NCBI GenBank assembly: GCA_963770245.1 | Contig: CAVYOX010000005.1 | Span: forward strand, 169-64,168 | Source of the DNA: an uncultured Acidobacteriaceae bacterium | GTDB lineage: Bacteria; Acidobacteriota; Terriglobia; Terriglobales; Acidobacteriaceae | Direction: 5' to 3' | Length of the DNA: 64,000 nt | Part shown: in pieces, positions 42,254-54,063 of the stretch | Layout of the letters: every line of letters starts with the position of its first letter | Position numbering within the stretch: position 1 is the stretch's first letter | The notes under the pieces: generated by a model | Databases searched by the model: none | Told to the model about the DNA's origin: nothing | What the model saw: the letters and a program-made list of their open reading frames with translations, nothing else | Translations under genes and position numbers: made by a program

Positions 42254-42269
42254 TGTGATTTCGATCACT
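42254..42269. promoter_or_regulatory. CRP/FNR-family type palindrome TGTGATTTCGATCACT
   Basis: Matches TGTGAT-N4-ATCAC(A) at 11 of 12 positions. Centred about 84 nt upstream of the radical SAM ATG at 42345. Confidence 0.4.
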
Positions 42270-43581: not shown

Positions 43582-44895
43582 TCAGCGGCCGGAGCCGCCT
43601 TCGGCAATCTGCAAATCGAGGGAGACGCGTTCGCCGTTAATCAGCACGGTTCCTTGGTCAACCAACTGCTGGCCGGTGCATTCGTAGTTTGCATAGCAAC
43701 GCAATGCGGAAAACGGAAAGAAGAACTCGACTGCTTCGGAGTTGGCGCTTGCCGCCGCAGTTTTGCCGGCTACGTGAACCGTCGTGCTGAAACCCACACC
43801 GTCGAAGTTCTGCTCCGCTTTTAAGTATTCGAGCGTCGGACGCACCAGATGGGCGATATGCTCATCGAAGGCCAGCGCCGCCAATTTATAACGCGAACCG
43901 TTGGCGGATTGTGGAAGCGAAGAGTTGATGGAAAGCTCCAAGTAGATCGCTTGACGAAACCCGACGAAACTCGGGGGTGCATAGCCGACGAAGTGGGCTT
44001 GTGGGTCCATGCCCTTCATCATCTGGGCGATGATTTCCTGGTCGGAGGTTTCTAGAGAAGCCAGCGCTTGCGGCGAGGTGTCGCGCGGGGGAGGCAGCGG
44101 AACAGCGGTTCCTTGCTGTCTTGGGGCCACCGAGGGCGCGGGCTGAGGCGCACCACCGGGAACGACCGCAGAATCTGCTTGAGGAACCTCTTCCCCATTC
44201 TCCGCGAAGGTCCTTCCCTTTCTTTGCGAGACCTCGCTTGCTGAGCCATCGACTGCCAACCGCCGCCCTTCGTTGGTCAACCAGATGGAAACGGGCTGGG
44301 CGTTCAAGAAAGCCTTCCCCTCAAGCAACGCGGCTTGCTGCACGGTCTCGTTCTTGGAGCCAATCAGTCTTATGGCGGCCTGCTGCGGCAGGAAGACCAT
44401 CAGGTTCTCCGCCCGCTCCATGTCGACGCCCATCACTTTGCCCATGATGTGGTGGGAGACTTCGATCGCGTAGCCTTGAATCTCGCGGTTCGACTGAAAG
44501 CGCGGGACCGCGCCTTTCAGAATGGGCATAACTACGGCGAGAAATGTGGCGCGGGCGCGCTGCTCCTCGCTCATCTTCTGATTCGAGTACGCGGCGTAGT
44601 AGTTTCCTGTAATCGCCAGTACGGTTTGGTCGTTGTAGCTGTCGAAGCGGATGGAGTGTTGGTCTGCGCGCTGCTGTTCCGCCTGATCCAGGTCGAGTTT
44701 GCGGCTGAGATAGAACGGATAGTCGAAGTGACTGGCGAGAATGTCGCGCCCCGCGGATTGCAACTCGTCCATGTACTGCTGCTGCAGGGATCTGAGCTCT
44801 GGATCTTTGATTTCCCACGGACTTTCAACTTGGGCAAGGCATGTGCCGCAAGCCAACAAAAAGAAAGCGAGCCGGAGCGATTTATTTCTGGACAT
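43582..44895 (-). CDS. periplasmic hypothetical protein, last gene of the Rieske/b operon
   Basis: Signal peptide MSRNKSLRLAFFLLACGTCLAQ. Two globular halves joined by a Pro-rich linker. Its start overlaps the upstream gene by 14 nt. Confidence 0.55.
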   Translation of the reverse strand: MSRNKSLRLAFFLLACGTCLAQVESPWEIKDPELRSLQQQYMDELQSAGRDILASHFDYPFYLSRKLDLDQAEQQRADQHSIRFDSYNDQTVLAITGNYYAAYSNQKMSEEQRARATFLAVVMPILKGAVPRFQSNREIQGYAIEVSHHIMGKVMGVDMERAENLMVFLPQQAAIRLIGSKNETVQQAALLEGKAFLNAQPVSIWLTNEGRRLAVDGSASEVSQRKGRTFAENGEEVPQADSAVVPGGAPQPAPSVAPRQQGTAVPLPPPRDTSPQALASLETSDQEIIAQMMKGMDPQAHFVGYAPPSFVGFRQAIYLELSINSSLPQSANGSRYKLAALAFDEHIAHLVRPTLEYLKAEQNFDGVGFSTTVHVAGKTAAASANSEAVEFFFPFSALRCYANYECTGQQLVDQGTVLINGERVSLDLQIAEGGSGR

Positions 44896-45622
44896 ACGTC
44901 ATTCCGGGACCAGGATACGGTGGATCCGAGATCAGTCGGATGTAGGCAATCAGAGCCTGCGTCTCTGTCTTGCTGAGAGTATATCCGTAGGGTGGCATCA
45001 GTGCGGACTTGTTCAAGGACGCGCCGCCGTGGTTGATGACGGCGGTCAGGTCGTTGTCGGTCATCTTATTGAGCGTGTCCCCGTCTGTGAAAGCGTGCGG
45101 CTTGACCTCCAGATTATCGTAATTGGAAACGCGCTCGGGCGTAGATTCCGGGTTATGGCAGCGGACGCAGTACTTTGCGTCGAGCTGTTCGCCCACTTGT
45201 GCTTGATAGCCGAGCGCAATCTCCTCCAGGGTGAGTTCCACTTTTTTCTGTGCCTTGGTCAGGGAGCCGGCCGTGATCTGGTAGCGCCCCGCCATTCCGC
45301 CTAGCCCCACGTTAGTACTGACCTGTCCGCTGGAGTCGGCGAGGCCGCTCGGTGGGTCAAAGCTAACGCCTGGGGGCCCGCTGAATTCCACCAACGCTCC
45401 CGGGACCGCGTTGCCCTGCTCGTCGTTGACCTGGACGACCACGGGCTGGCTGAGCACCGCCCCGGTGGCGCCGATTTGTTTGTTGCCGCTTGATTCAACC
45501 AGAGCCGTGCCGAAAGCGGTCGGTTTTAGATCTGATGGCGAAGCGGATTTCCTGGCGCACCCGGCACTGCCGATGACAACGGCGAGTCCAAATGCCACCG
45601 GAGCCAGCGAACATCTGGTCAT
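44882..45622 (-). CDS. lipoprotein with an Ig-like (Big_1-type) domain and a monohaem cytochrome c domain
   Basis: Lipobox VIGSAGC. LSQPVVVQVNDEQGNAVPGALVEF is invasin/Big-like. CVRCH with a downstream MPPYG Met ligand. Confidence 0.7.
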   Translation of the reverse strand: MTRCSLAPVAFGLAVVIGSAGCARKSASPSDLKPTAFGTALVESSGNKQIGATGAVLSQPVVVQVNDEQGNAVPGALVEFSGPPGVSFDPPSGLADSSGQVSTNVGLGGMAGRYQITAGSLTKAQKKVELTLEEIALGYQAQVGEQLDAKYCVRCHNPESTPERVSNYDNLEVKPHAFTDGDTLNKMTDNDLTAVINHGGASLNKSALMPPYGYTLSKTETQALIAYIRLISDPPYPGPGMTYVQK

Positions 45623-47679
45623 TTCTTCGCCTCCTGCTGGCCGGAGTTTCGTTGCGCCATCAGGAAAGCGGTCAGCGCGCGGGCATCTTCGTCGCTGATA
45701 TTGAAGTTCGGCTCAATGGTTCCCGGCCGGAGAGCTTGCGGGTTCTTCAGCCAGTTATAGATCCAAGCGGCGTTCAGGCGCGAACCCACTTGTGTGAGTG
45801 TCGGCCCAATATAACCCTTGTCGGCCGTCGAATCGACGATGTGGCAAGACTGGCACGCATACTTGGCGTAGAAGAGCTGTTTGCCCTGTTCGACTTGGGC
45901 CGTTGGATAGCCGCTGGCCGGCATGGAGTCGCGGTCGATGGCAGGGGTTTGATAAACCGTCATGATGTAGTCGGTCAGCTCGGTGATGTCGCTGTCGGAG
46001 AGGTTGAACTTGGGCATGCGGCGAATCAGCGACGGCCGCAGCGTGTTGGGATTCTTCAGGAACGCCTGGAGCCATGGCCGCTGCACCGAGCTGCCTTCCC
46101 AACTGAGATCTGGGGCCATGTCACCGCCGCGACCGTTGATGGTGTGGCAACTGAAGCAGGCCAGATCTGCCATGAGCTTTCCGGCTTTGCCTGCGGGCTG
46201 GTAGTCGGAGGTCCGCGGCGCCGGCACGGCCAAGGCGCGCGGCAGGTTCTGGCTTCGATCCGTCAGCGCGAGCAGCGCCGTCGTTAGAGCGTCGATTTGC
46301 GCAGGCGCGAAGCTGAACTGCGGCATCTTCAGTGCCGTCCCGAACGACCGCGGCTGGCGGATCTTGGCGGAAATGTAGTCCGGCAAGGTGTGCGGCATTC
46401 CCGTCAGGAAGATCAGTTGCGTAATCGGCTTGCTGCCGATTCGGGTAAGCTCCGGGGCGAAATTCTCCGGCTTCTTAATCCCGCTGATTTCGTGGCAGGC
46501 GGCACAGCCATACTCTGTAGCCAGAGTCTTGCCATGCGCAATTTGTTCGGGCGTGGCCGCATCCAAATGCACGTTGGCCAACAGATCGGAATCGGTCTTG
46601 CCTTCGAGGTACCGGCTCAGCGATGACAACTGCTGTTCGCTGAAGCGGTAATGCGGCATCGCGGTTTCGGGGTCATAGGTACGGGGATTGCGCAGCCATG
46701 CCTGCAGCCATTCCGGTTTCACTTTGCTGCCCACACGCGTCAGCTCGGGGCCGACATCTCCGCCTACCACATTGCCCGCCGCATTCTGCACCGCGTGACA
46801 GGAGGCGCAGAACGACTCGCCGTATAAACTGGCGGCCGCAGTGGGATCAGGCGGAGCTTTCGACGCCGACGCCGGCAACGTCGCGGTATCTTCCGGCAGA
46901 GGTGTGCTGTTCGCGATCAAGAAAGCGGAAATGTCGCGGGCATCCGGATCGCTCAGCTTGAAATTCGGCATGATGGCAGAAGCGGCATAGGCCTGAGGGT
47001 CCTTCAGCCAGGCATAAATCCATTCCCGCGTGGTCTTGTCGGCGATGTGAGAAAGCGAAGGCGGGTCGTCAGTCGCTTGCATGGTGCCGCCATCGGGCAG
47101 CTTGACCGTGTGACAGCTGACGCAACCATAACGCGCTAACAGAGTCCGCCCCCAGTTGAGCTGGGGCGTACCAGGAACCGCAGCACGGTGGCATTGTCCA
47201 CAAGAAGCTTCCACGTAGCGTGCGGGCAAAATGGGCTGCTCCCACGCCAAAGTGCTGCGATGGGCTTCGGCAACGGTTGTGGCGGCGCCTTGTCCGCGAT
47301 GGCACACTACACAGCCGAATTCATCCAGCTTGTGGGGGATCACAGGATGTCGGCGGAACGGTTGCATACTCACGTCAGCCAGGCTGGCTTCCTTCAATCC
47401 GACGTGACAGGTGGTGCAGCGGTCTACCACACCGAGATCGGGAAGCCAGATTTGCTGAATTCCGCCCTGCAAATGGCGCTGCAGGGTAAGCGCGTCGCCG
47501 CGCCCCCGGATCAAACTCAGGTATTGATCTTGATAATGGCGCCACTCGCTAAAATAGTTCTTGGCCGGAGCAATGGCCAGCGAAAGGAGCAAGAGCAGAC
47601 TGACCACACCAAAGGCACGGACGGGGTCGCCGAACAATGTCCGCCACCCCACGAAAAGCGGGTTCTTCGACGAGTCCAC
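45619..47679 (-). CDS. membrane-anchored octahaem cytochrome c
   Basis: Eight CxxCH motifs: CTTCH, CVVCH, CGQCH, CVSCH, CASCH, CAACH, CFSCH and CQSCH. The last five sit in repeated class-I-like modules (...WL.NP......MP.F.LS...). N-terminal TM helix. GTG start abuts the upstream stop. Confidence 0.85.
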   Translation of the reverse strand: MDSSKNPLFVGWRTLFGDPVRAFGVVSLLLLLSLAIAPAKNYFSEWRHYQDQYLSLIRGRGDALTLQRHLQGGIQQIWLPDLGVVDRCTTCHVGLKEASLADVSMQPFRRHPVIPHKLDEFGCVVCHRGQGAATTVAEAHRSTLAWEQPILPARYVEASCGQCHRAAVPGTPQLNWGRTLLARYGCVSCHTVKLPDGGTMQATDDPPSLSHIADKTTREWIYAWLKDPQAYAASAIMPNFKLSDPDARDISAFLIANSTPLPEDTATLPASASKAPPDPTAAASLYGESFCASCHAVQNAAGNVVGGDVGPELTRVGSKVKPEWLQAWLRNPRTYDPETAMPHYRFSEQQLSSLSRYLEGKTDSDLLANVHLDAATPEQIAHGKTLATEYGCAACHEISGIKKPENFAPELTRIGSKPITQLIFLTGMPHTLPDYISAKIRQPRSFGTALKMPQFSFAPAQIDALTTALLALTDRSQNLPRALAVPAPRTSDYQPAGKAGKLMADLACFSCHTINGRGGDMAPDLSWEGSSVQRPWLQAFLKNPNTLRPSLIRRMPKFNLSDSDITELTDYIMTVYQTPAIDRDSMPASGYPTAQVEQGKQLFYAKYACQSCHIVDSTADKGYIGPTLTQVGSRLNAAWIYNWLKNPQALRPGTIEPNFNISDEDARALTAFLMAQRNSGQQEAKK

Positions 47680-48384
47680 CTAACTCCCCCAAGGCCAAAC
47701 CCAGGACCAGCCTGGGCCACGAAAGAATGTACCAACCGCGGTGAGTACCACCAGCTCGAACAAGAACCACGTCATCACCCAATAGGAAAGCGGCTTGGCT
47801 GCGACATACCGCTGGAAAGCCGAGGGCGACTGCAGCGAACTCTGGCCGGCCATGAACATGAATCCGGTCATGATCAGAGTCGGAGCGAGAGCCACGTAGA
47901 CGTGAAAAAGCAGTAGGAACAAACCGAGCCCCAGCGCGACCCCGTAGAAGATCCGCAGTCGGAACTTGCGATGCTGCAGGAATAAGCCTTCGGCCTCGAT
48001 GTTGATGTTGAAATAGGGGATGACGACCAAAGCGATGACCACCAGGGTAGGAACCAGCACGCCGGCAACCACCGGCGGGAAGTAGTGCAGCATCTCCTGC
48101 AGCCCCAGAAAATACCAGGGCGCTTTGGCGGGATTGGGAGTGTGGGAGGGATCGGCGATACCTTCGAGCGGCGCATTGAACAAAAGAGCAATCACGGCCA
48201 ACACAATCGCCAGCACCTCAATCGCAACCGCCGCCCGGAACAGAACTTCCGGATAAGTCTGGAGCTGCGTCTCGTCCGCGGTTCTTACTTGGGCGGAGGT
48301 GCGTCGGGTGACAAAAGCCACACGCACGGGCGACTTGCGCGCGTCGGAGTCCATGCCGGCGGAAAAATCCTTGGGGTCGCTCAT
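47680..48384 (-). CDS. cytochrome b C-terminal part (subunit IV/PetD-like)
   Basis: [21 protein letters not shown] (PEWYF-type motif). ATGA overlap with the cytochrome b6 gene. Confidence 0.8.
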
Positions 48385-49178
48385 TGCGGATCCTTGGTCG
48401 AGGCTGCTGGAGCAGGCACCGCCATGGCCCCGATCGTCTTGGGCTCGGTCGGGTGGGAGTAAAGCCCACCATCTTTACGAATTCGCCAGAAATGCACCGC
48501 GATCAACAAGGTCGCTGCCAGCGGCAGGATTACGCAGTGCAGCACGTAAAAACGCAGGAGTGCGTTCGCATTCACCTGGTTGCCGCCCAACATCAGGAAG
48601 TGCACTCTGTTGCCGAAAACCGGCACGGCGGAGGCGATGTTCGAGCCGACGGTGATGGCCCAAAACGCCAGCTGATCCCAGGGCAGCAAATATCCCGTGT
48701 AGCTCAAAAGCAGGGTAATGAGCAGCAGAATAACGCCAATGACCCAATTGAATTCGCGGGGCGGGCGGTAGGCGCCGCGGTAAAACACTTTGAACATATG
48801 CGCGAACACCAGCAAGACCATGGCATGCGCTGACCAGCGATGAAGATTGCGCAGAAACAATCCTGAGGAAACGACGAACTGCAGATCTTTGGTATCCGCG
48901 TAGGCTTGCGGGACTGATGGATGGTAATACAGCATCAGCAGAATGCCGGTGATCAGCAGAATCAAGAAGGTCCCGAAGGTCAGCGTTCCCAAGTACCAGG
49001 TGGTGCTAAAGCTGACCATGCGCCTCCGCACCTTGGTCGAAAACAGGTGTAAGAAGATGTTCTGCTGGATCGCGAGGGCGCGATGCAGAGTGCTCGAACC
49101 CGTCCCGCTGCGAAAAACCGAACGCCACACGCGCGCGTTGCGCAATTCGTCGAAATAGTTGCCGATCGTCTTGGCCAT
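48381..49178 (-). CDS. cytochrome b6-type (split cytochrome b, N-terminal part)
   Basis: [18 protein letters not shown].... Haem-ligand His pairs lie in [18 protein letters not shown] and [22 protein letters not shown]. An alternative TTG start at 49184 overlaps the Rieske stop. Confidence 0.85.
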
Positions 49179-49180
49179 GC

Positions 49181-49672
49181 TCAAACCCTCACAAACTGCA
49201 TGGGACGGATATCGGTCGAGCGGTCTACCATCAGATCGCCGTCCTCACTCACCCAGGTCCGCAGCCAGGGCAACGGTCTGGGTGCTGGGCCGGCGATCTT
49301 CTCTCCGTCGCGGTTGAACTTGCTCCCGTGGCAAGGGCAGGCAATGATGCCCAACTCGGGTTTCCATGCCGTCATGCAGCCGAGGTGGGTACAGATGGCG
49401 CTCAGCGCGAAAAAACCTTCCTTGGTACGGATCAGGTAAATCCCCGAGTTCACATCGAGGGTAACGGAATCCTCGGAATAGCCCTCCGGTTTGCCGGCGT
49501 TGACAATGGGGGAAGGCTCGTACAGCACATTGGGAGAGAGAAACTGATAGGCAAACACCGCCGTGCCGGTGGCGGCAATGCTCAACGACCCCAGTCCCAG
49601 CTTCACAAAGAAAGCACGTCGGTCGAATTCTTTGCCGGGGGCCGCGGGCTTGTCTTGTTTCTCCTCGGACAT
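49181..49672 (-). CDS. Rieske 2Fe-2S protein
   Basis: Tat-like RRAFFVKLG. Cluster boxes CTHLGC and CPCHGS. Confidence 0.9.
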
Positions 49673-49674
49673 GC

Positions 49675-51660
49675 TTACCTCGGGCTCGCGCCTGCCAATG
49701 GCGCTGGGTGCCGAAAAGGTCCATCCAACGTTTCGATCGAGATCAGGCCCGTGGGCTCAGCCGGAACCAAGCGGTAAGACTCCATGGTGATCGTGCTCAC
49801 GGGACAACGCGCGGCGCACAACCCGCAACGAATGCAGCGAGTCTCGTCCTTCAGCATCGCGGAACCACTCACCACTCCAAGGTCGTCAGCCTTCACTTCA
49901 TCCAGTTCCACTGCGAACAACTCCTGGTGCTCCCGTATTTGTTGCACCGCCTCGGGATCGAAGGCAATTCGATCCAACGACACCAGTTGCAAACAATTTT
50001 CCGGGCACACATCGACGCAGCCGCCACACAGGATGCACAGGGTGCCATCTTCAGGAGTGCCCTCGAAGACCGTATTCACCCAGCAGTGCAGACAGCGCTG
50101 CGCCTCTTGCATCGCAGTCTCGGCGTCGTAACCGATTTCCACTTCCGTCACCCCGGTGCGGCGCTCGAGCGGCAACATGGGAATCGGCTCACGGGTTAGA
50201 TCGAGCAAGTTCAGCGGCATGCCATAGCGTTTGAGCACATCCACTTCGACGATCGGTTCGGGATGCTTTTCTCCGCGCAGGAATTCATCGATGCCCACCG
50301 CCGCGCGTTTGCCATCGGCCACGCTGTCGATAATCAGGCGCGGCCCAAACACGCAGTCGCCTCCGGCGAAGATGCCATGGGCTGAGGTCATCAGGGTTTG
50401 GGGATTAACGGCGATCAAGCCCCGCGGCGAGAGCTCCACGCCATCTTCGGGTTTTAGGAAGTCCAGTCTCGGCGCCTGGCCGATGGCCATGATGATGGTG
50501 TCGCATTCCAGCTGGGTTTCACTGCCCTCGTAGAACGCCGGATTGAAGCGCTTGTTCTGATCGAACACCCACTTCGTCCTCAGCGCCTCCAGAGCGACAA
50601 CCTTGCCGTCCTGGCCGATCATCCGCTTGGGGCCCAGGCCGGGATGCATGATGATGCCTTCCATCTCCGCTTCCTCGATTTCTTCCAGGGCAGCCGGCAT
50701 TTCCTCGCGCTTTTCCAGGCAGACAAGGTTCACTTCGCTCGCCCCCAGGCGTAGCGCGGAGAGCGAGATATCCACCATTTCTCGAGTGGCAACCGCAGCC
50801 ACGTTCTCTTGCGATGGTTCCAGATCTTCGACTCCGGCAACATGCTGGCGCACCACCTCGCGAGCCGCAGAACGGGCGACATCCATAGCCACGTTCCCGC
50901 CGCCAATCACAATGACCTTCTTGCCGATGGTGAACTTGTAGCCGAGGTTCACGTTCAAGAGGAAATCAATTCCCTTGTAGACTCCGTCTAGATCGACGCC
51001 GGGAATCGTGAGGTCGCGACTGCGATGGGCTCCCACCGCGATCAGCACAGCATCAAAGCCCTGACCGCGCAGATCGGAAATCGCAAAGTCGCGCCCGGCC
51101 GAGTGATTGAGTTTGAGAGTGATGTCTCCGGTCTCGAGAATTTCCCGCACCTGGGCTTCCACGACATCGCGGGGCAAACGATATTCGGGAATGCCGAGAT
51201 AAAGCATTCCACCGGCGACCGGCGCAGCTTCAAAGATTGTGACCGAGTAGCCCATAAGGGCCAAGTCATGAGCCGCCGACAAACCGACGGGCCCGCCTCC
51301 TACAACCGCGATTTTGAATGGAAGTTTGTTCTGAGCGCGCCCGGCATTTACATCAACCGGATGTTTCGACTCGGGGCCATGGCGCTCAGTCAGAAAACGC
51401 TTCAAGGCTCGGATCGCAATGGGCCGGTCGATTTCTCCGCGACGGCATGCGGTCTCGCAAGGATGCGCGCAAACCCGGCCGCAGATACTCGCCAGCGGAT
51501 TGGGATCGCGAGCAAATTTGTAAGCTTCCTCAAAGCGGCCTTCCGCGATCAGCTCCACGTATCGGCCGGCATTGGTATGGGCCGGACAAGCCATCATGCA
51601 AGGGAAGTTGGTGTTGAGCCAATCCCGGTCCACCTTCTTATCTTTGTAGCGTTTCAACAT
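49675..51660 (-). CDS. GltD-like NAD(P)H/FAD oxidoreductase with a C-terminal 2x[4Fe-4S] ferredoxin domain
   Basis: N-terminal Fe-S Cys pattern (CPAHTN...CGRVCAHPCETAC). Dinucleotide folds KIAVVGGGPVGLSAAHDL and KVIVIGGGNVAMDVARSA. CILCGGCVDVCP and CIRCGLCAARCP. Confidence 0.85.
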   Translation of the reverse strand: MLKRYKDKKVDRDWLNTNFPCMMACPAHTNAGRYVELIAEGRFEEAYKFARDPNPLASICGRVCAHPCETACRRGEIDRPIAIRALKRFLTERHGPESKHPVDVNAGRAQNKLPFKIAVVGGGPVGLSAAHDLALMGYSVTIFEAAPVAGGMLYLGIPEYRLPRDVVEAQVREILETGDITLKLNHSAGRDFAISDLRGQGFDAVLIAVGAHRSRDLTIPGVDLDGVYKGIDFLLNVNLGYKFTIGKKVIVIGGGNVAMDVARSAAREVVRQHVAGVEDLEPSQENVAAVATREMVDISLSALRLGASEVNLVCLEKREEMPAALEEIEEAEMEGIIMHPGLGPKRMIGQDGKVVALEALRTKWVFDQNKRFNPAFYEGSETQLECDTIIMAIGQAPRLDFLKPEDGVELSPRGLIAVNPQTLMTSAHGIFAGGDCVFGPRLIIDSVADGKRAAVGIDEFLRGEKHPEPIVEVDVLKRYGMPLNLLDLTREPIPMLPLERRTGVTEVEIGYDAETAMQEAQRCLHCWVNTVFEGTPEDGTLCILCGGCVDVCPENCLQLVSLDRIAFDPEAVQQIREHQELFAVELDEVKADDLGVVSGSAMLKDETRCIRCGLCAARCPVSTITMESYRLVPAEPTGLISIETLDGPFRHPAPLAGASPR

Positions 51661-51733
51661 GATTGGGAAGGATGCGAATCCTGGGCTGAAAAGAATTAAG
51701 GAGCGGAGATGCGCCTTCCCCGCTCCCGGCCTG

Positions 51734-52315
51734 CTATTTGCTTAGCGTGAAGTCCGCCTTGGTGTCGCCCGCAACCGTCACGGGCTTTGACTGGTTCTTT
51801 GCGCCTTCGTGCCACCCGGCTACGGTGTAGCTGCCATCGGGGACGTTCTCGATTTTGTAGTCTCCCGACTTGTCGGTCAGCGCATAGTACGGAGTCGGCG
51901 CCACGACAATGTAGCCAGACATCTCGGGATGCACATTGCACAGCAGCGGAACGGCGCCCGGGTTATCGAACTTGAACGGACGTTTCTGCCCTTGGGGCCA
52001 GGTGCCCAAGTTGTGGCCCAGTTTCTTGTTACCCCCGACGGAAATCCAAAAAACATTGTGGGCGACGCTGTCGCTGTTCAAAAACTCCACCGTCGTTCCT
52101 TGCTGCACCACGACAATGTGGGGCTGGAACATCAGGCCCTTCTGGTCCATGACCGGCTCCTCGGTGGGAGCGGGAAAGGTCTTGCCGGCTACCGCTTCAA
52201 CGTAAACTACCGACTCGCCCGTGACGCCCGACACTTTTCCAGAAATCGTGCCCGCGCTGGCGGCCGCCCCCATCATTGCGACTACTGCCATCACCATCAG
52301 TATCGTAGGTCTCAT
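51734..52315 (-). CDS. periplasmic type-1 copper (cupredoxin) protein with a CarboxypepD_reg-like C-terminal domain
   Basis: Signal peptide MRPTILMVMAVVAMMGAAASA (GGAGG RBS). Cu ligands AHNVF and the amicyanin-type loop CNVHPEM (C-x2-H-x2-M). DKSGDYKIENVPDGSYTV. Confidence 0.7.
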   Translation of the reverse strand: MRPTILMVMAVVAMMGAAASAGTISGKVSGVTGESVVYVEAVAGKTFPAPTEEPVMDQKGLMFQPHIVVVQQGTTVEFLNSDSVAHNVFWISVGGNKKLGHNLGTWPQGQKRPFKFDNPGAVPLLCNVHPEMSGYIVVAPTPYYALTDKSGDYKIENVPDGSYTVAGWHEGAKNQSKPVTVAGDTKADFTLSK

Positions 52316-52362
52316 TCTTGCCTCCATTGTGTCCGCAATCACTTGCGGTTGAATCCTGGTCG

Positions 52363-53940
52363 TTAGTAGGCGAACTCCAAGCCGCCCGTGGCGGTATTTG
52401 TACGGAATAGGTTCACTGCGTTTCCATTCGTGTCGTAGGTGAGGGCCTGCTGCGGCCGGAACGCATACTCAAACGACGCCTTGATGTTGGCGTGGATCAG
52501 GAATTGTACCCCAGGGGTAATCCGGTCGCGCGTGCTCCCCACAGGCGAGTAAAAGTTCAGGCTACCCGCCTGATTCAGAAAATCCGCTGAGGACTGGACG
52601 CGATCCCAACGCAGGATTCCCATCACCCACGGGAGCATGAGATAGTCGGCCTCGAGGAAGCCGCCACTGAACTTGGCTGGGCTGCCGGGAACGAATCCAG
52701 TGAACAGAGGGTTAAACAACGAATCTTGATCGTGGCCATACATGTACAGGCCAAACAGATTGAAGGTGTGGTAGTTGAAACTGAAATCGCCTCCGACACG
52801 ATAGAACGGCTCATGCGCGGTGATCACCGCGGACGTCACCCCGTCCGACGCGAAACCAGAGAAACGCTGCTCTGAACTGCCGTAGAAGGAATACGCGCCC
52901 ACGCTTAAGTATGTATGGTCACGCGGCCCACTCGCGCCGGCCGCCTGGATCGAATTGCGGCTCGCAGCGTCCTTCTCCAGATTAAATCGGTAGGAGACAT
53001 TGGCGTAGAGATCCTTAAAACTGGAGTCTGAGAAAAAGCCAACCCCCGGGGCGCCGATCTGTCCTCCCGTAGGCGAAGGCACATTGGTCGCAGACGAGGA
53101 ACTGCCGCCGCTGGTGTTTTGATCCACGATGGCCAGCGAATAACGATATCCCTTGTAAAGATGGCCTCCACTGAACTCGATTCCGCGGGCGGCATCGCTC
53201 AACGCAAACAAGTTGTTTACCCCCGCTTGCGGGTTCTGTTGATTGGCCACGGCAATGTTGGCCTCGGTGTAAATATCGTATGGGCTGATATTGATCGACC
53301 GAGCTTGCGTAAAAGGCAAGTCGAGTTCGAACTGGCCCACCCTCATGGTCAACGCGTCCGTCGGCAGCTTGAAGAAGCGTCCAATGTTGACGAAGCGCAG
53401 ATAACCGTCACCAAGCCCGCCATTCGCGTTCTCTCCCGCCACGCTAATATCGTCATCCACCCAGAAGGCGATATCGCTCCCAAAATTTCCTGCCATGAAG
53501 ATGCTGAAAAAACCCGGTTCAAAATCGGTGGTCGGAACATTCGGTATTTGCAGCGTCCCCGGGGTCCCTGTAGGCGTCTGGTTGTAGTTGTTGGCGCTGC
53601 CGTTGGTGTACTGGAAAAACTGGTTGAAGCGCAGGCCAATGGGGGGTAGCCCTGGGATGGTCCCCGGAAATATGGTGTGCGGCCACAGCTCTTTCTGCGC
53701 AGGCGCTCCGAGCATTATGGGCGCGAGCTTGATAAACGCGTCATCATCCTTGGGAAACTTGAACCCCGCATCCTTAAAAGCTTTGCCGAAGTCATTCAGT
53801 TTGGGAAAGTCGACATGGCAGGTGCTGCACGAGGTGCCGTATTGACGGGAAAAGGCCGGAATGGCGTGACTATGAGTCGAAAACAACAAGCATGCAAACA
53901 GCTCCAGGAACACAACCGACATGCGATGATGCACTTGCAT
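52363..53940 (-). CDS. outer-membrane beta-barrel-like protein with an N-terminal c-type haem motif (Cyc2-like architecture)
   Basis: Signal peptide ...FSTHSHA|IPAF. A single CSTCH lies about a dozen residues into the mature chain. About 480 aa follow, rich in alternating Gly, aromatic and polar residues. The C-terminus is ...GGLEFAY (aromatic terminal residue typical of OMPs). ggaggagg RBS. Confidence 0.55.
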   Translation of the reverse strand: MQVHHRMSVVFLELFACLLFSTHSHAIPAFSRQYGTSCSTCHVDFPKLNDFGKAFKDAGFKFPKDDDAFIKLAPIMLGAPAQKELWPHTIFPGTIPGLPPIGLRFNQFFQYTNGSANNYNQTPTGTPGTLQIPNVPTTDFEPGFFSIFMAGNFGSDIAFWVDDDISVAGENANGGLGDGYLRFVNIGRFFKLPTDALTMRVGQFELDLPFTQARSINISPYDIYTEANIAVANQQNPQAGVNNLFALSDAARGIEFSGGHLYKGYRYSLAIVDQNTSGGSSSSATNVPSPTGGQIGAPGVGFFSDSSFKDLYANVSYRFNLEKDAASRNSIQAAGASGPRDHTYLSVGAYSFYGSSEQRFSGFASDGVTSAVITAHEPFYRVGGDFSFNYHTFNLFGLYMYGHDQDSLFNPLFTGFVPGSPAKFSGGFLEADYLMLPWVMGILRWDRVQSSADFLNQAGSLNFYSPVGSTRDRITPGVQFLIHANIKASFEYAFRPQQALTYDTNGNAVNLFRTNTATGGLEFAY

Positions 53941-54047: not shown

Positions 54048-54063
54048 TGTGATTGAGATCACA
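54048..54063. promoter_or_regulatory. perfect CRP/FNR-family type palindrome TGTGATTGAGATCACA
   Basis: Perfect TGTGA-N6-TCACA (also 6-4-6 TGTGAT/ATCACA). Centred about 115 nt upstream of the ATG at 53940, in the divergent intergenic region. Confidence 0.45.

Follow-up and report, generated by a model that had tools for sequence, protein, structure and literature searches.

We analyzed a 64,000-nucleotide stretch of DNA from an uncultured Acidobacteriaceae bacterium (contig CAVYOX010000005.1), here called the window, focusing on a gene that encodes a 661-amino-acid flavoprotein (49675 to 51660) and lies among genes for a Rieske/cytochrome b complex. The gene is one of nine closely packed genes on the minus strand (43582 to 53940), running from a heme-porin gene to a gene for a 437-aa protein; all features of this cluster given below are on that strand. 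The open reading frame (ORF) encodes a permuted GltD/NfnB-type core joined to a ferredoxin domain with two [4Fe-4S] clusters. A sequence scan revealed neither a signal peptide nor a transmembrane or otherwise hydrophobic segment, consistent with a cytoplasmic protein. The initial annotation had placed the stop codon of the gene 2 nt from the start of the Rieske gene (49181 to 49672); indeed, the junction reads TAA-GC-ATG.

Pfam assigned residues 18 to 93 of the flavoprotein (51382 to 51609) to Fer4_20 (E = 1.6e-23), residues 115 to 450 (50311 to 51318) to Pyr_redox_2 (E = 2.2e-30) and residues 542 to 622 to 4Fe-4S ferredoxin domains. The second of these regions comprises the FAD and pyridine-nucleotide Rossmann domains, with the nucleotide motifs GGGPVG at 121 and GGGNVA at 253. 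The ferredoxin domain as a whole spans residues 534 to 625 (49786 to 50061), and its two CxxCxxCxxxCP motifs read CILCGGCVDVCP at 542 (residues 542 to 553) and CIRCGLCAARCP at 609 (residues 609 to 620). Thus, the length and the paired ferredoxin motifs given in the initial annotation were borne out. However, what had been taken for a second GxGxxG is GxGxxA, as it is across the whole GltD/NfnB family, and the N-terminal Cys region is only a partial Fer4_20 domain. In an alignment of 26 full-length relatives (38 to 58% identity), the invariant or near-invariant Cys residues were C21, C25, C64, C68, C72, C523, C526, the eight ferredoxin Cys and the near-invariant C556 of the ferredoxin domain. 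This leaves seven Cys for two GltD-type clusters, so that one cluster would have three Cys ligands. Such a three-Cys cluster has been reported for NfnB-like proteins and for the anammox flavoprotein Kuste4570 (bioRxiv 10.1101/2025.06.25.661457). An AlphaFold2 model of the flavoprotein was obtained with a mean predicted local distance difference test score (pLDDT) of 82.8 and a predicted template modeling score of 0.82. Its top Foldseek matches were 9bov_A, 9n5u_A and 8oh5_C, followed, in order, by NfnI/NfnB, GltD and DPD.

The partial Fer4_20 match spans only profile positions 29 to 107 of 113, and the missing "RCLxC" piece is found at residues 522 to 526, behind the flavin domains. HMMER aligned residues 12 to 42 of NfnB (4ylf_B) to flavoprotein residues 496 to 526; this NfnB segment and residues 8 to 47 of NfnI-L (5jca_L) both map onto the stretch from residue 490 to 528 (50077 to 50193), which ends in "EAQRCLHC". 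The key columns of this stretch (R490, R501, R522, C523 and C526) are invariant in the 26-sequence alignment. The opening segment of GltD/NfnB has therefore been moved behind the flavin domains, that is, the core is circularly permuted, and the displaced segment is predicted to supply the CxxC (C523/C526) of the distal [4Fe-4S] cluster. The same permutation, which leaves RCLxC behind the flavin domains, is found in NfnABC (9bov/9bp5, 9n5u) and StnC (8oh5) of the Bfu family, whose GltD-like modules are both the best sequence matches to the flavoprotein (E = 3.6e-92 to 3.2e-80) and the best folds. Those modules, however, are fused to large formate-dehydrogenase/NuoG-like domains within soluble bifurcating complexes and carry an NADPH-type YRR motif, whereas the window protein stands alone and lacks YRR. 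Neither a fusion to formate-dehydrogenase/NuoG-like domains nor a NuoF/NuoE-like partner was found for it: the core is followed by a ferredoxin domain only, the protein ends at 661 aa and its neighbors are respiratory membrane proteins.

To place the flavoprotein within its superfamily, we examined its own genome (6.63 Mb, 98% complete), which encodes three proteins of the superfamily, each with different partners. The only Glu_synthase match above a trivial level in this genome is on contig C16, where gltB is overlapped by a gene for a 487-aa GltD; no gltB is present in the 64-kb window, nor does the flavoprotein have an NfnA (PyrK-like) neighbor there. Contig C7 (L004:368-2844) carries an overlapping pair, an NfnA-like gene with FAD_binding_6 and DHODB_Fe-S_bind and an NfnB-like gene, which together probably encode an NfnAB transhydrogenase in a Terriglobales genome. 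A tree of 153 sequences was built on the shared core by a quick search, with support from the Shimodaira-Hasegawa-like approximate likelihood ratio test (SH-aLRT) only and with the PDB sequences included as partial stretches copied by hand from HMMER alignments. In this tree, GltD (that of E. coli and that on contig C16) forms the outgroup on a separate branch (SH-aLRT 99); NfnB, SudA and the C7 paralog form one clade (SH-aLRT 99), with the Bfu modules branching next. The window flavoprotein falls in a 61-member clade (SH-aLRT 96) made up almost entirely of proteins of 570 to 700 aa with two ferredoxin motifs. It thus groups with neither GltD nor SudA/NfnB, and the initial annotation was right both that no gltB is adjacent and that the protein does not act in glutamate synthesis, the one gltB in the genome having its own gltD.

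These data bear on the reading of the flavoprotein as the small subunit of glutamate synthase (GltD) or as NfnB, which the automatic names "glutamate synthase beta subunit-like" and "formate dehydrogenase beta subunit" and a set of sub-threshold NCBIfam matches would suggest. NfnB/SudA and GltD do share the FAD/NAD(P)H two-Rossmann core and two [4Fe-4S] clusters with it (Foldseek template modeling score of ~0.78 relative to the target). However, they are unpermuted proteins of ~470 aa that have no ferredoxin domain and are partnered with NfnA or GltB. In the flavoprotein, by contrast, the core is permuted, a ferredoxin domain is added and CLEK stands in place of YRR. Its scores against TIGR01317, TIGR01318 and TIGR01316 are all below the cut-offs, it lies outside both clades in the tree, and the gltB–gltD and NfnA–NfnB pairs are on other contigs. 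As far as sequence can tell, we therefore give this reading practically no chance of being correct, and both automatic names are wrong for the flavoprotein family.

In the Rossmann fold for the pyridine nucleotide, the second β-strand of the flavoprotein finishes with "VCLEK", at a point where GltD, NfnB, SudA, the NfnB-like protein of the same genome and the Bfu modules all have YRR(S/T). Among the members of the tree, Glu occupies this position in 99 of the 104 proteins of the large clade that contains the window protein, compared with Arg-Arg in 44 of the 49 outside it. In Rossmann folds, an acidic residue at this site favors NAD and arginines favor NADP. Thus, the replacement of YRR by CLE(K) predicts NADH/NAD+, rather than NADPH, as the substrate. 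The clade also has an insertion of its own at residues ~268 to 300, ahead of CLEK, modeled by AlphaFold2 with a pLDDT below 50.

The genes that follow the flavoprotein gene encode a b6-type complex and its cytochromes. The Rieske [2Fe-2S] protein (163 aa) has a twin-arginine leader (DRRAFF) and the cluster motifs CTHLGC and CPCHGSKF. Next come cytochrome b6 (48381 to 49184; Pfam Cytochrome_B, E = 2.2e-44), with four helices, both His pairs and a conserved N-terminal His, and a PetD-like subunit IV (47680 to 48384; Pfam Cytochrom_B_C) with the quinol-oxidation (Qo) motif APWY. These are followed by an octaheme cytochrome c with an N-terminal membrane anchor and eight CxxCH motifs (45619 to 47679; Pfam, NCBIfam) and a monoheme cytochrome c with a Big_1 domain (44882 to 45622). 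The last gene of the cluster (43582 to 44895) encodes the 437-aa protein, which had no family match in the Pfam/NCBIfam scan. Directly upstream of the flavoprotein gene is a cupredoxin gene (51734 to 52342; H...CNVHPEM) with a CarboxypepD_reg-like domain, preceded by the gene for a type A heme-porin, an outer-membrane-type protein of 525 aa with one CxxCH at residues 38 to 42 (52363 to 53940). The ligands of the cupredoxin are spaced much as in amicyanin (CNVHPEM), and the fusion of this protein to a carboxypeptidase-regulatory-like β-sandwich is unusual for a blue copper protein. By the predicted topology, the flavoprotein would be cytoplasmic, with the Rieske center and the heme proteins on the outer side. 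In the alignment, cytochrome b6 has YLGT at the site of the CxGG cysteine and so would lack a covalent heme c_n at the usual quinone-reduction site. The N-terminal His, which lies in a long extension of cytochrome b6, is kept in flavoprotein-linked cytochrome b proteins of five phyla.

We next asked how well this arrangement is conserved. A search with an 8-sequence alignment yielded 80 loci from species-representative genomes (59 to 91% identity), all of them in Acidobacteriota (Terriglobales and Bryobacterales) except for one in an Eremiobacteraceae genome, with no named anammox genome among those kept. Cupredoxin, flavoprotein, Rieske and b6 follow one another in this order in 78 of the 80, the two exceptions being one truncated contig and one second, orphan copy. 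In 74 of these 78 loci, the distance from the flavoprotein stop to the Rieske start is −16 to +41 nt. Within this set of 78, subunit IV is present in 75, the octaheme cytochrome in 72 and the monoheme cytochrome in 68 loci, and the shortfalls are mostly due to truncated contigs. A heme-porin gene lies upstream in 72 of the 80 and is of one of two mutually exclusive types, A (42 loci) or B (30 loci). The two types (e.g., 52363-53940 and L010:5813-7276) are alignable only around CxxCH, with 39% identity over 62 aa, and the gene for the 437-aa protein was detected in 36 of the 80 loci, nearly all of them with the type A porin. Of 301 Acidobacteriota genomes sampled, 40 encode a full-length homolog (E ≤ 1e-150), and by genus the count is 30 of 186; the flavoprotein module is accessory in this phylum.

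The linkage extends beyond these loci. Of five more distant flavoprotein relatives that we sampled (45 to 53% identity), four lie near Rieske/cytochrome b genes. The gene order is flavoprotein, cytochrome b, Rieske, cytochrome c in a Nitrospinota metagenome-assembled genome (MAG); flavoprotein, Rieske, cytochrome b, cytochrome c in a Desulfomonilaceae MAG; and CcmE, flavoprotein, b6, subunit IV, Rieske in a further MAG. On a Nitrospirota contig, Rieske, b6 and subunit IV genes lie 4 kb downstream of the flavoprotein gene. The Nitrospinota cluster (L150) is preceded by a gene for an EB_dh heme protein and the Desulfomonilaceae cluster (L152) is followed by one for a nos_propeller protein, and thus the periplasmic partners of the module vary between lineages. 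The cluster members named for 20 representatives of the flavoprotein family come from Nitrospinota, Nitrospirota, Myxococcota and Desulfomonilaceae, with no Brocadiales among those named. Homolog searches with the window protein and with a Solibacteraceae copy gave no cultured carrier among the matches listed. Related observations are on record: Dibrova et al. 2017 (PMC5600118) described cytochrome b genes near such oxidoreductase genes "in many other cases."

The initial annotation had proposed that the flavoprotein is a subunit or dedicated partner of the Rieske/b complex. The 78 of 80 linked loci, the neighbors in other phyla and the full-length anammox homologs described below support this proposal. 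Very probably, then, the flavoprotein is a dedicated partner of the Rieske/b proteins that would bind them physically and join the N-side heme to NAD+/NADH. The more specific reading, to which we assign a probability of about 0.6, is that it binds NAD(H) on the cytoplasmic (N) side as a subunit of a b6-type Rieske/cytochrome b complex working in the mode put forward by Kartal et al. In such a complex, the pyridine nucleotide and FAD would exchange hydride, and single electrons would pass along four Fe-S clusters, two of the GltD/NfnB type (C21/C25/C64/C68/C72 plus C523/C526) and two of the ferredoxin type. This chain would connect to the N-side heme of cytochrome b, possibly via an extra heme on the conserved N-terminal His. 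Menaquinol would be oxidized at the Qo site (APWY). The first electron would go downhill through a high-potential Rieske center to the octaheme cytochrome, the cupredoxin and the outer-membrane heme-porin, and the second would be driven across the b hemes to reduce NAD+ in place of quinone at the quinone-reduction (Qi) site. A heterotroph might benefit, speculatively, by recycling these electrons through complex I.

The direction from quinol to NAD+ by bifurcation is the more tentative part of this reading, for which we see somewhat less than even odds. Terriglobia use low-potential menaquinone. The bifurcating direction is favored because this quinone is low in potential, because cytochrome b has no heme c_n site and because feeding from NADH would jam bifurcation at Qo. 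The scheme itself is that of Kartal et al. for anammox, as summarized in a later study (bioRxiv 10.1101/2025.06.25.661457). If quinol does drive NAD+ reduction, this would add to the Q cycle another route for conserving the energy of quinol oxidation, and it would bear on iron cycling in acidic soils. More broadly, the large non-anammox clade might use Qo bifurcation to return the low-potential electron to NAD+ in an "extended Q cycle" through complex I, with the high-potential branch of soil Acidobacteria running via cupredoxin and heme-porin to extracellular iron. We consider this generalization doubtful, if conceivable.

Several points weigh against our interpretation. Bifurcation of this kind is a proposal that is undemonstrated even in anammox (bioRxiv 10.1101/2025.06.25.661457), and the NADH preference is drawn solely from the general Rossmann-fold rule. 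RuBisCO was not found in the genome and the organism looks heterotrophic; a need for NADH from quinol is not obvious. The heme-porin and cupredoxin would fit an outward flow from NADH equally well. Finally, the MAG MFD01689.bin.1.40 has, besides its operon copy (L067), an orphan flavoprotein copy that is 75% identical (L078:7896-9944), and the fifth of the sampled distant relatives, P0144, has no Rieske or cytochrome b gene nearby; the linkage is therefore not obligatory. The neighbors of the orphan copy are pirin, folD-like and Ser/Thr kinase genes, with no Rieske or cytochrome b gene nearby. The orphan paralog and P0144, together with the fact that its nearest relatives of solved structure are soluble enzymes of the Nfn/Stn type, might be taken to mean that the flavoprotein is a free soluble oxidoreductase (e.g., NAD(H):ferredoxin) that is only cotranscribed with cytochrome b and not bound to it. 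We regard this as very improbable, given that the linkage is kept across phyla with tight gene spacing, that no Nfn/Stn-type partner domain (NfnA-, NuoF- or formate-dehydrogenase-like) is fused or adjacent to the flavoprotein in the window and that the homologous subunit of Kuenenia, as cited in later literature, comigrates with its complex.

The lack of RuBisCO, the heterotrophic look and the frequency of heme-porin (72 of 80 loci) and cupredoxin (78 of 80) would also suit the same complex working in reverse. The flavoprotein would then be an NADH dehydrogenase head that passes electrons through its Fe-S clusters and the b hemes to an N-side quinone or, through Rieske, octaheme cytochrome, cupredoxin and porin, to an acceptor outside the cell, for instance the Fe(III) of acidic peat. 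The resemblance of the cytochromes to ExtP, ExtQ and ExtS, families assigned by NCBIfam to a selenite/tellurite reduction operon, likewise suggests outward flow, and Dibrova et al. (PMC5600118) view such cytochrome b proteins as membrane anchors of dehydrogenases. However, if NADH electrons entered the N-side heme, bifurcation at Qo could no longer proceed in that complex, and electrons moving from the N to the P side would run down the membrane potential; cytochrome b, moreover, has no recognizable c_n-type quinone-reduction site. That quinol oxidation is retained is also indicated by a Rieske protein of the high-potential type and an intact Qo motif. On these grounds we consider the reversed direction unlikely.

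The operon further unites a single-heme porin that is putatively Cyc2-like, a cupredoxin and a Rieske/b complex, a set reminiscent of the Acidithiobacillus pathway of Cyc2, rusticyanin, cytochrome c4 and bc1 in reverse (PMC10654088). By analogy with the petI bc1 of Acidithiobacillus, the window complex might serve as an uphill branch of Fe(II) oxidation, in which porin/cupredoxin electrons enter at the Rieske center and, together with NADH electrons (confurcation) or the proton-motive force, reduce quinone. Yet confurcation would use up NADH instead of making it, a rough estimate makes the energetics with menaquinone marginal, and the genome, having no RuBisCO, gives no sign of Calvin-cycle autotrophy. 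With the Cyc2 identity of the porin itself only putative, such a role appears improbable, and we retain the quinol-oxidizing complex with an NAD(H)-binding subunit as the preferred interpretation.

The region around the operon contains further features. The cupredoxin stop and the flavoprotein start are separated by 73 nt, within which lies a GC-rich hairpin of 11 bp followed by a T-rich tail (51699 to 51727); it could be a terminator or attenuator that sets the expression of porin and cupredoxin apart from that of the Rieske/b genes. A perfect TGTGATNNNNATCACA palindrome is located at 54048 to 54063, ~110 nt upstream of the porin ATG, and a copy with one mismatch is found at 42254 to 42269, upstream of a radical SAM gene. 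The two matches compare with 0.02 expected, and the pair suggests a common regulator of the CRP/FNR family. Elsewhere in the genome there are two further cytochrome b genes (C16:156472-157017 and C4:88230-88808), making the window complex one of up to three cytochrome b-containing systems.

In terms of known systems, the best NCBIfam matches of the cytochromes are to the ext cluster of Geobacter: ExtP for b6 (260.7 bits), ExtQ for subunit IV (55.2) and ExtS for the octaheme cytochrome (106.7). NCBIfam names these families as members of the selenite/tellurite reduction operon. The scores of b6 and subunit IV fall short of the cut-offs (290 for ExtP and 150 for ExtQ).

The closest parallels are with anammox bacteria. 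Among all PDB chains, the window Rieske protein best matches 9rk4 (E = 6.3e-23) and 9rk3 (E = 5.2e-19), which are crystal structures of the Kuenenia stuttgartiensis Rieske proteins Kuste4569 and Kustd1480, with measured potentials of +303 and +335 mV that have been tied in part to the Ser of CPCHGS (bioRxiv 10.1101/2025.06.25.661457). The window protein has this Ser and, like the 9rk3 chain, Phe at the Tyr position; by its sequence, it would thus carry one of the two residues tied to high potential. For a wider comparison, we retrieved 62 metagenomic anammox loci with the 9rk4 fragment as query (46 to 86% identical to it, most 66 to 84%). The longer of these encode Rieske (~174 aa), flavoprotein (588 to 627 aa), b6 (~257 aa), subunit IV, a hexaheme cytochrome c and an octaheme protein, which is the Kuste4569-4574 layout. 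Their flavoproteins, metagenomic orthologs of the Kuste4570 type, align by tblastn to window residues 10 to 635/644 with 33 to 43% identity in loci whose Rieske protein is 66 to 84% identical to 9rk4, and their b6 proteins are 50 to 53% identical to that of the window. The comparison with anammox Rieske/b-associated subunits that the initial annotation called for thus uncovered full-length homologs.

Like the window protein, Kuste4570 and Kustd1483 are encoded inside a cluster of Rieske, b6, subunit IV and multiheme cytochrome c genes (Kuste4569-4574 and Kustd1480-1485). Both types are ~600 to 660 aa long and combine FAD and a site for pyridine nucleotide with four Fe-S clusters, of which one has only three Cys ligands, and the best structural relative of both is the NfnABC of C. 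saccharolyticus (9bov for the window protein, 9bp5 for Kuste4570). The cytochromes b share the four heme His, the sequence HFWR(I/V)RKDGG and an N-terminal His ("FLHLF" versus "WLHLHP"). The window His aligns with His43, which is proposed to hold the extra heme; in AlphaFold3 models of the anammox protein, His43 binds an extra heme b (bioRxiv 10.1101/2025.06.25.661457).

There are also clear differences between the two systems. The flavoprotein gene precedes the Rieske gene in the window, whereas it follows it in the Kuste4569-type loci. Anammox cytochrome b retains the heme c_n cysteine (CMGG), in contrast to YLGT in the window. The window octaheme cytochrome has four class-I domains, no HAO-like octaheme protein is present, and, unlike anammox, the window system has a cupredoxin and an outer-membrane heme-porin attached. 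The cofactor motif, CLE(K) in the window protein, is YRR in some anammox flavoproteins and CLES with an insertion in three. The anammox proteins of the Kuste4570 type thus occur in two forms, YRRT without the insertion (L087, L140) and CLES with an insertion of the acidobacterial type (L104, L120, L128), which hints that NADPH versus NADH use may differ among anammox lineages. In the maximum-likelihood tree, the anammox flavoproteins fall in a different subclade. A single clade of the anammox and acidobacterial proteins is not rejected by the approximately unbiased (AU) test (p = 0.458), and on this ground the notion that the window protein belongs to a different clade from anammox and is hence a paralog was dropped.

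The anammox design of a Rieske/cytochrome b complex with an NAD(P) oxidoreductase and the idea of bifurcation are already known and published. What appears to be undescribed, in the literature we searched, is the size of the clade and its uniform Glu-type motif, the loss of heme c_n and the fixed association with cupredoxin and heme-porin in Acidobacteria. An anammox-type design is now seen in Terriglobia of peat and soil, and the full-length homology makes it clear, at the level of sequence, that the window flavoprotein belongs to the Rieske/cytochrome b-associated family known from anammox bacteria.

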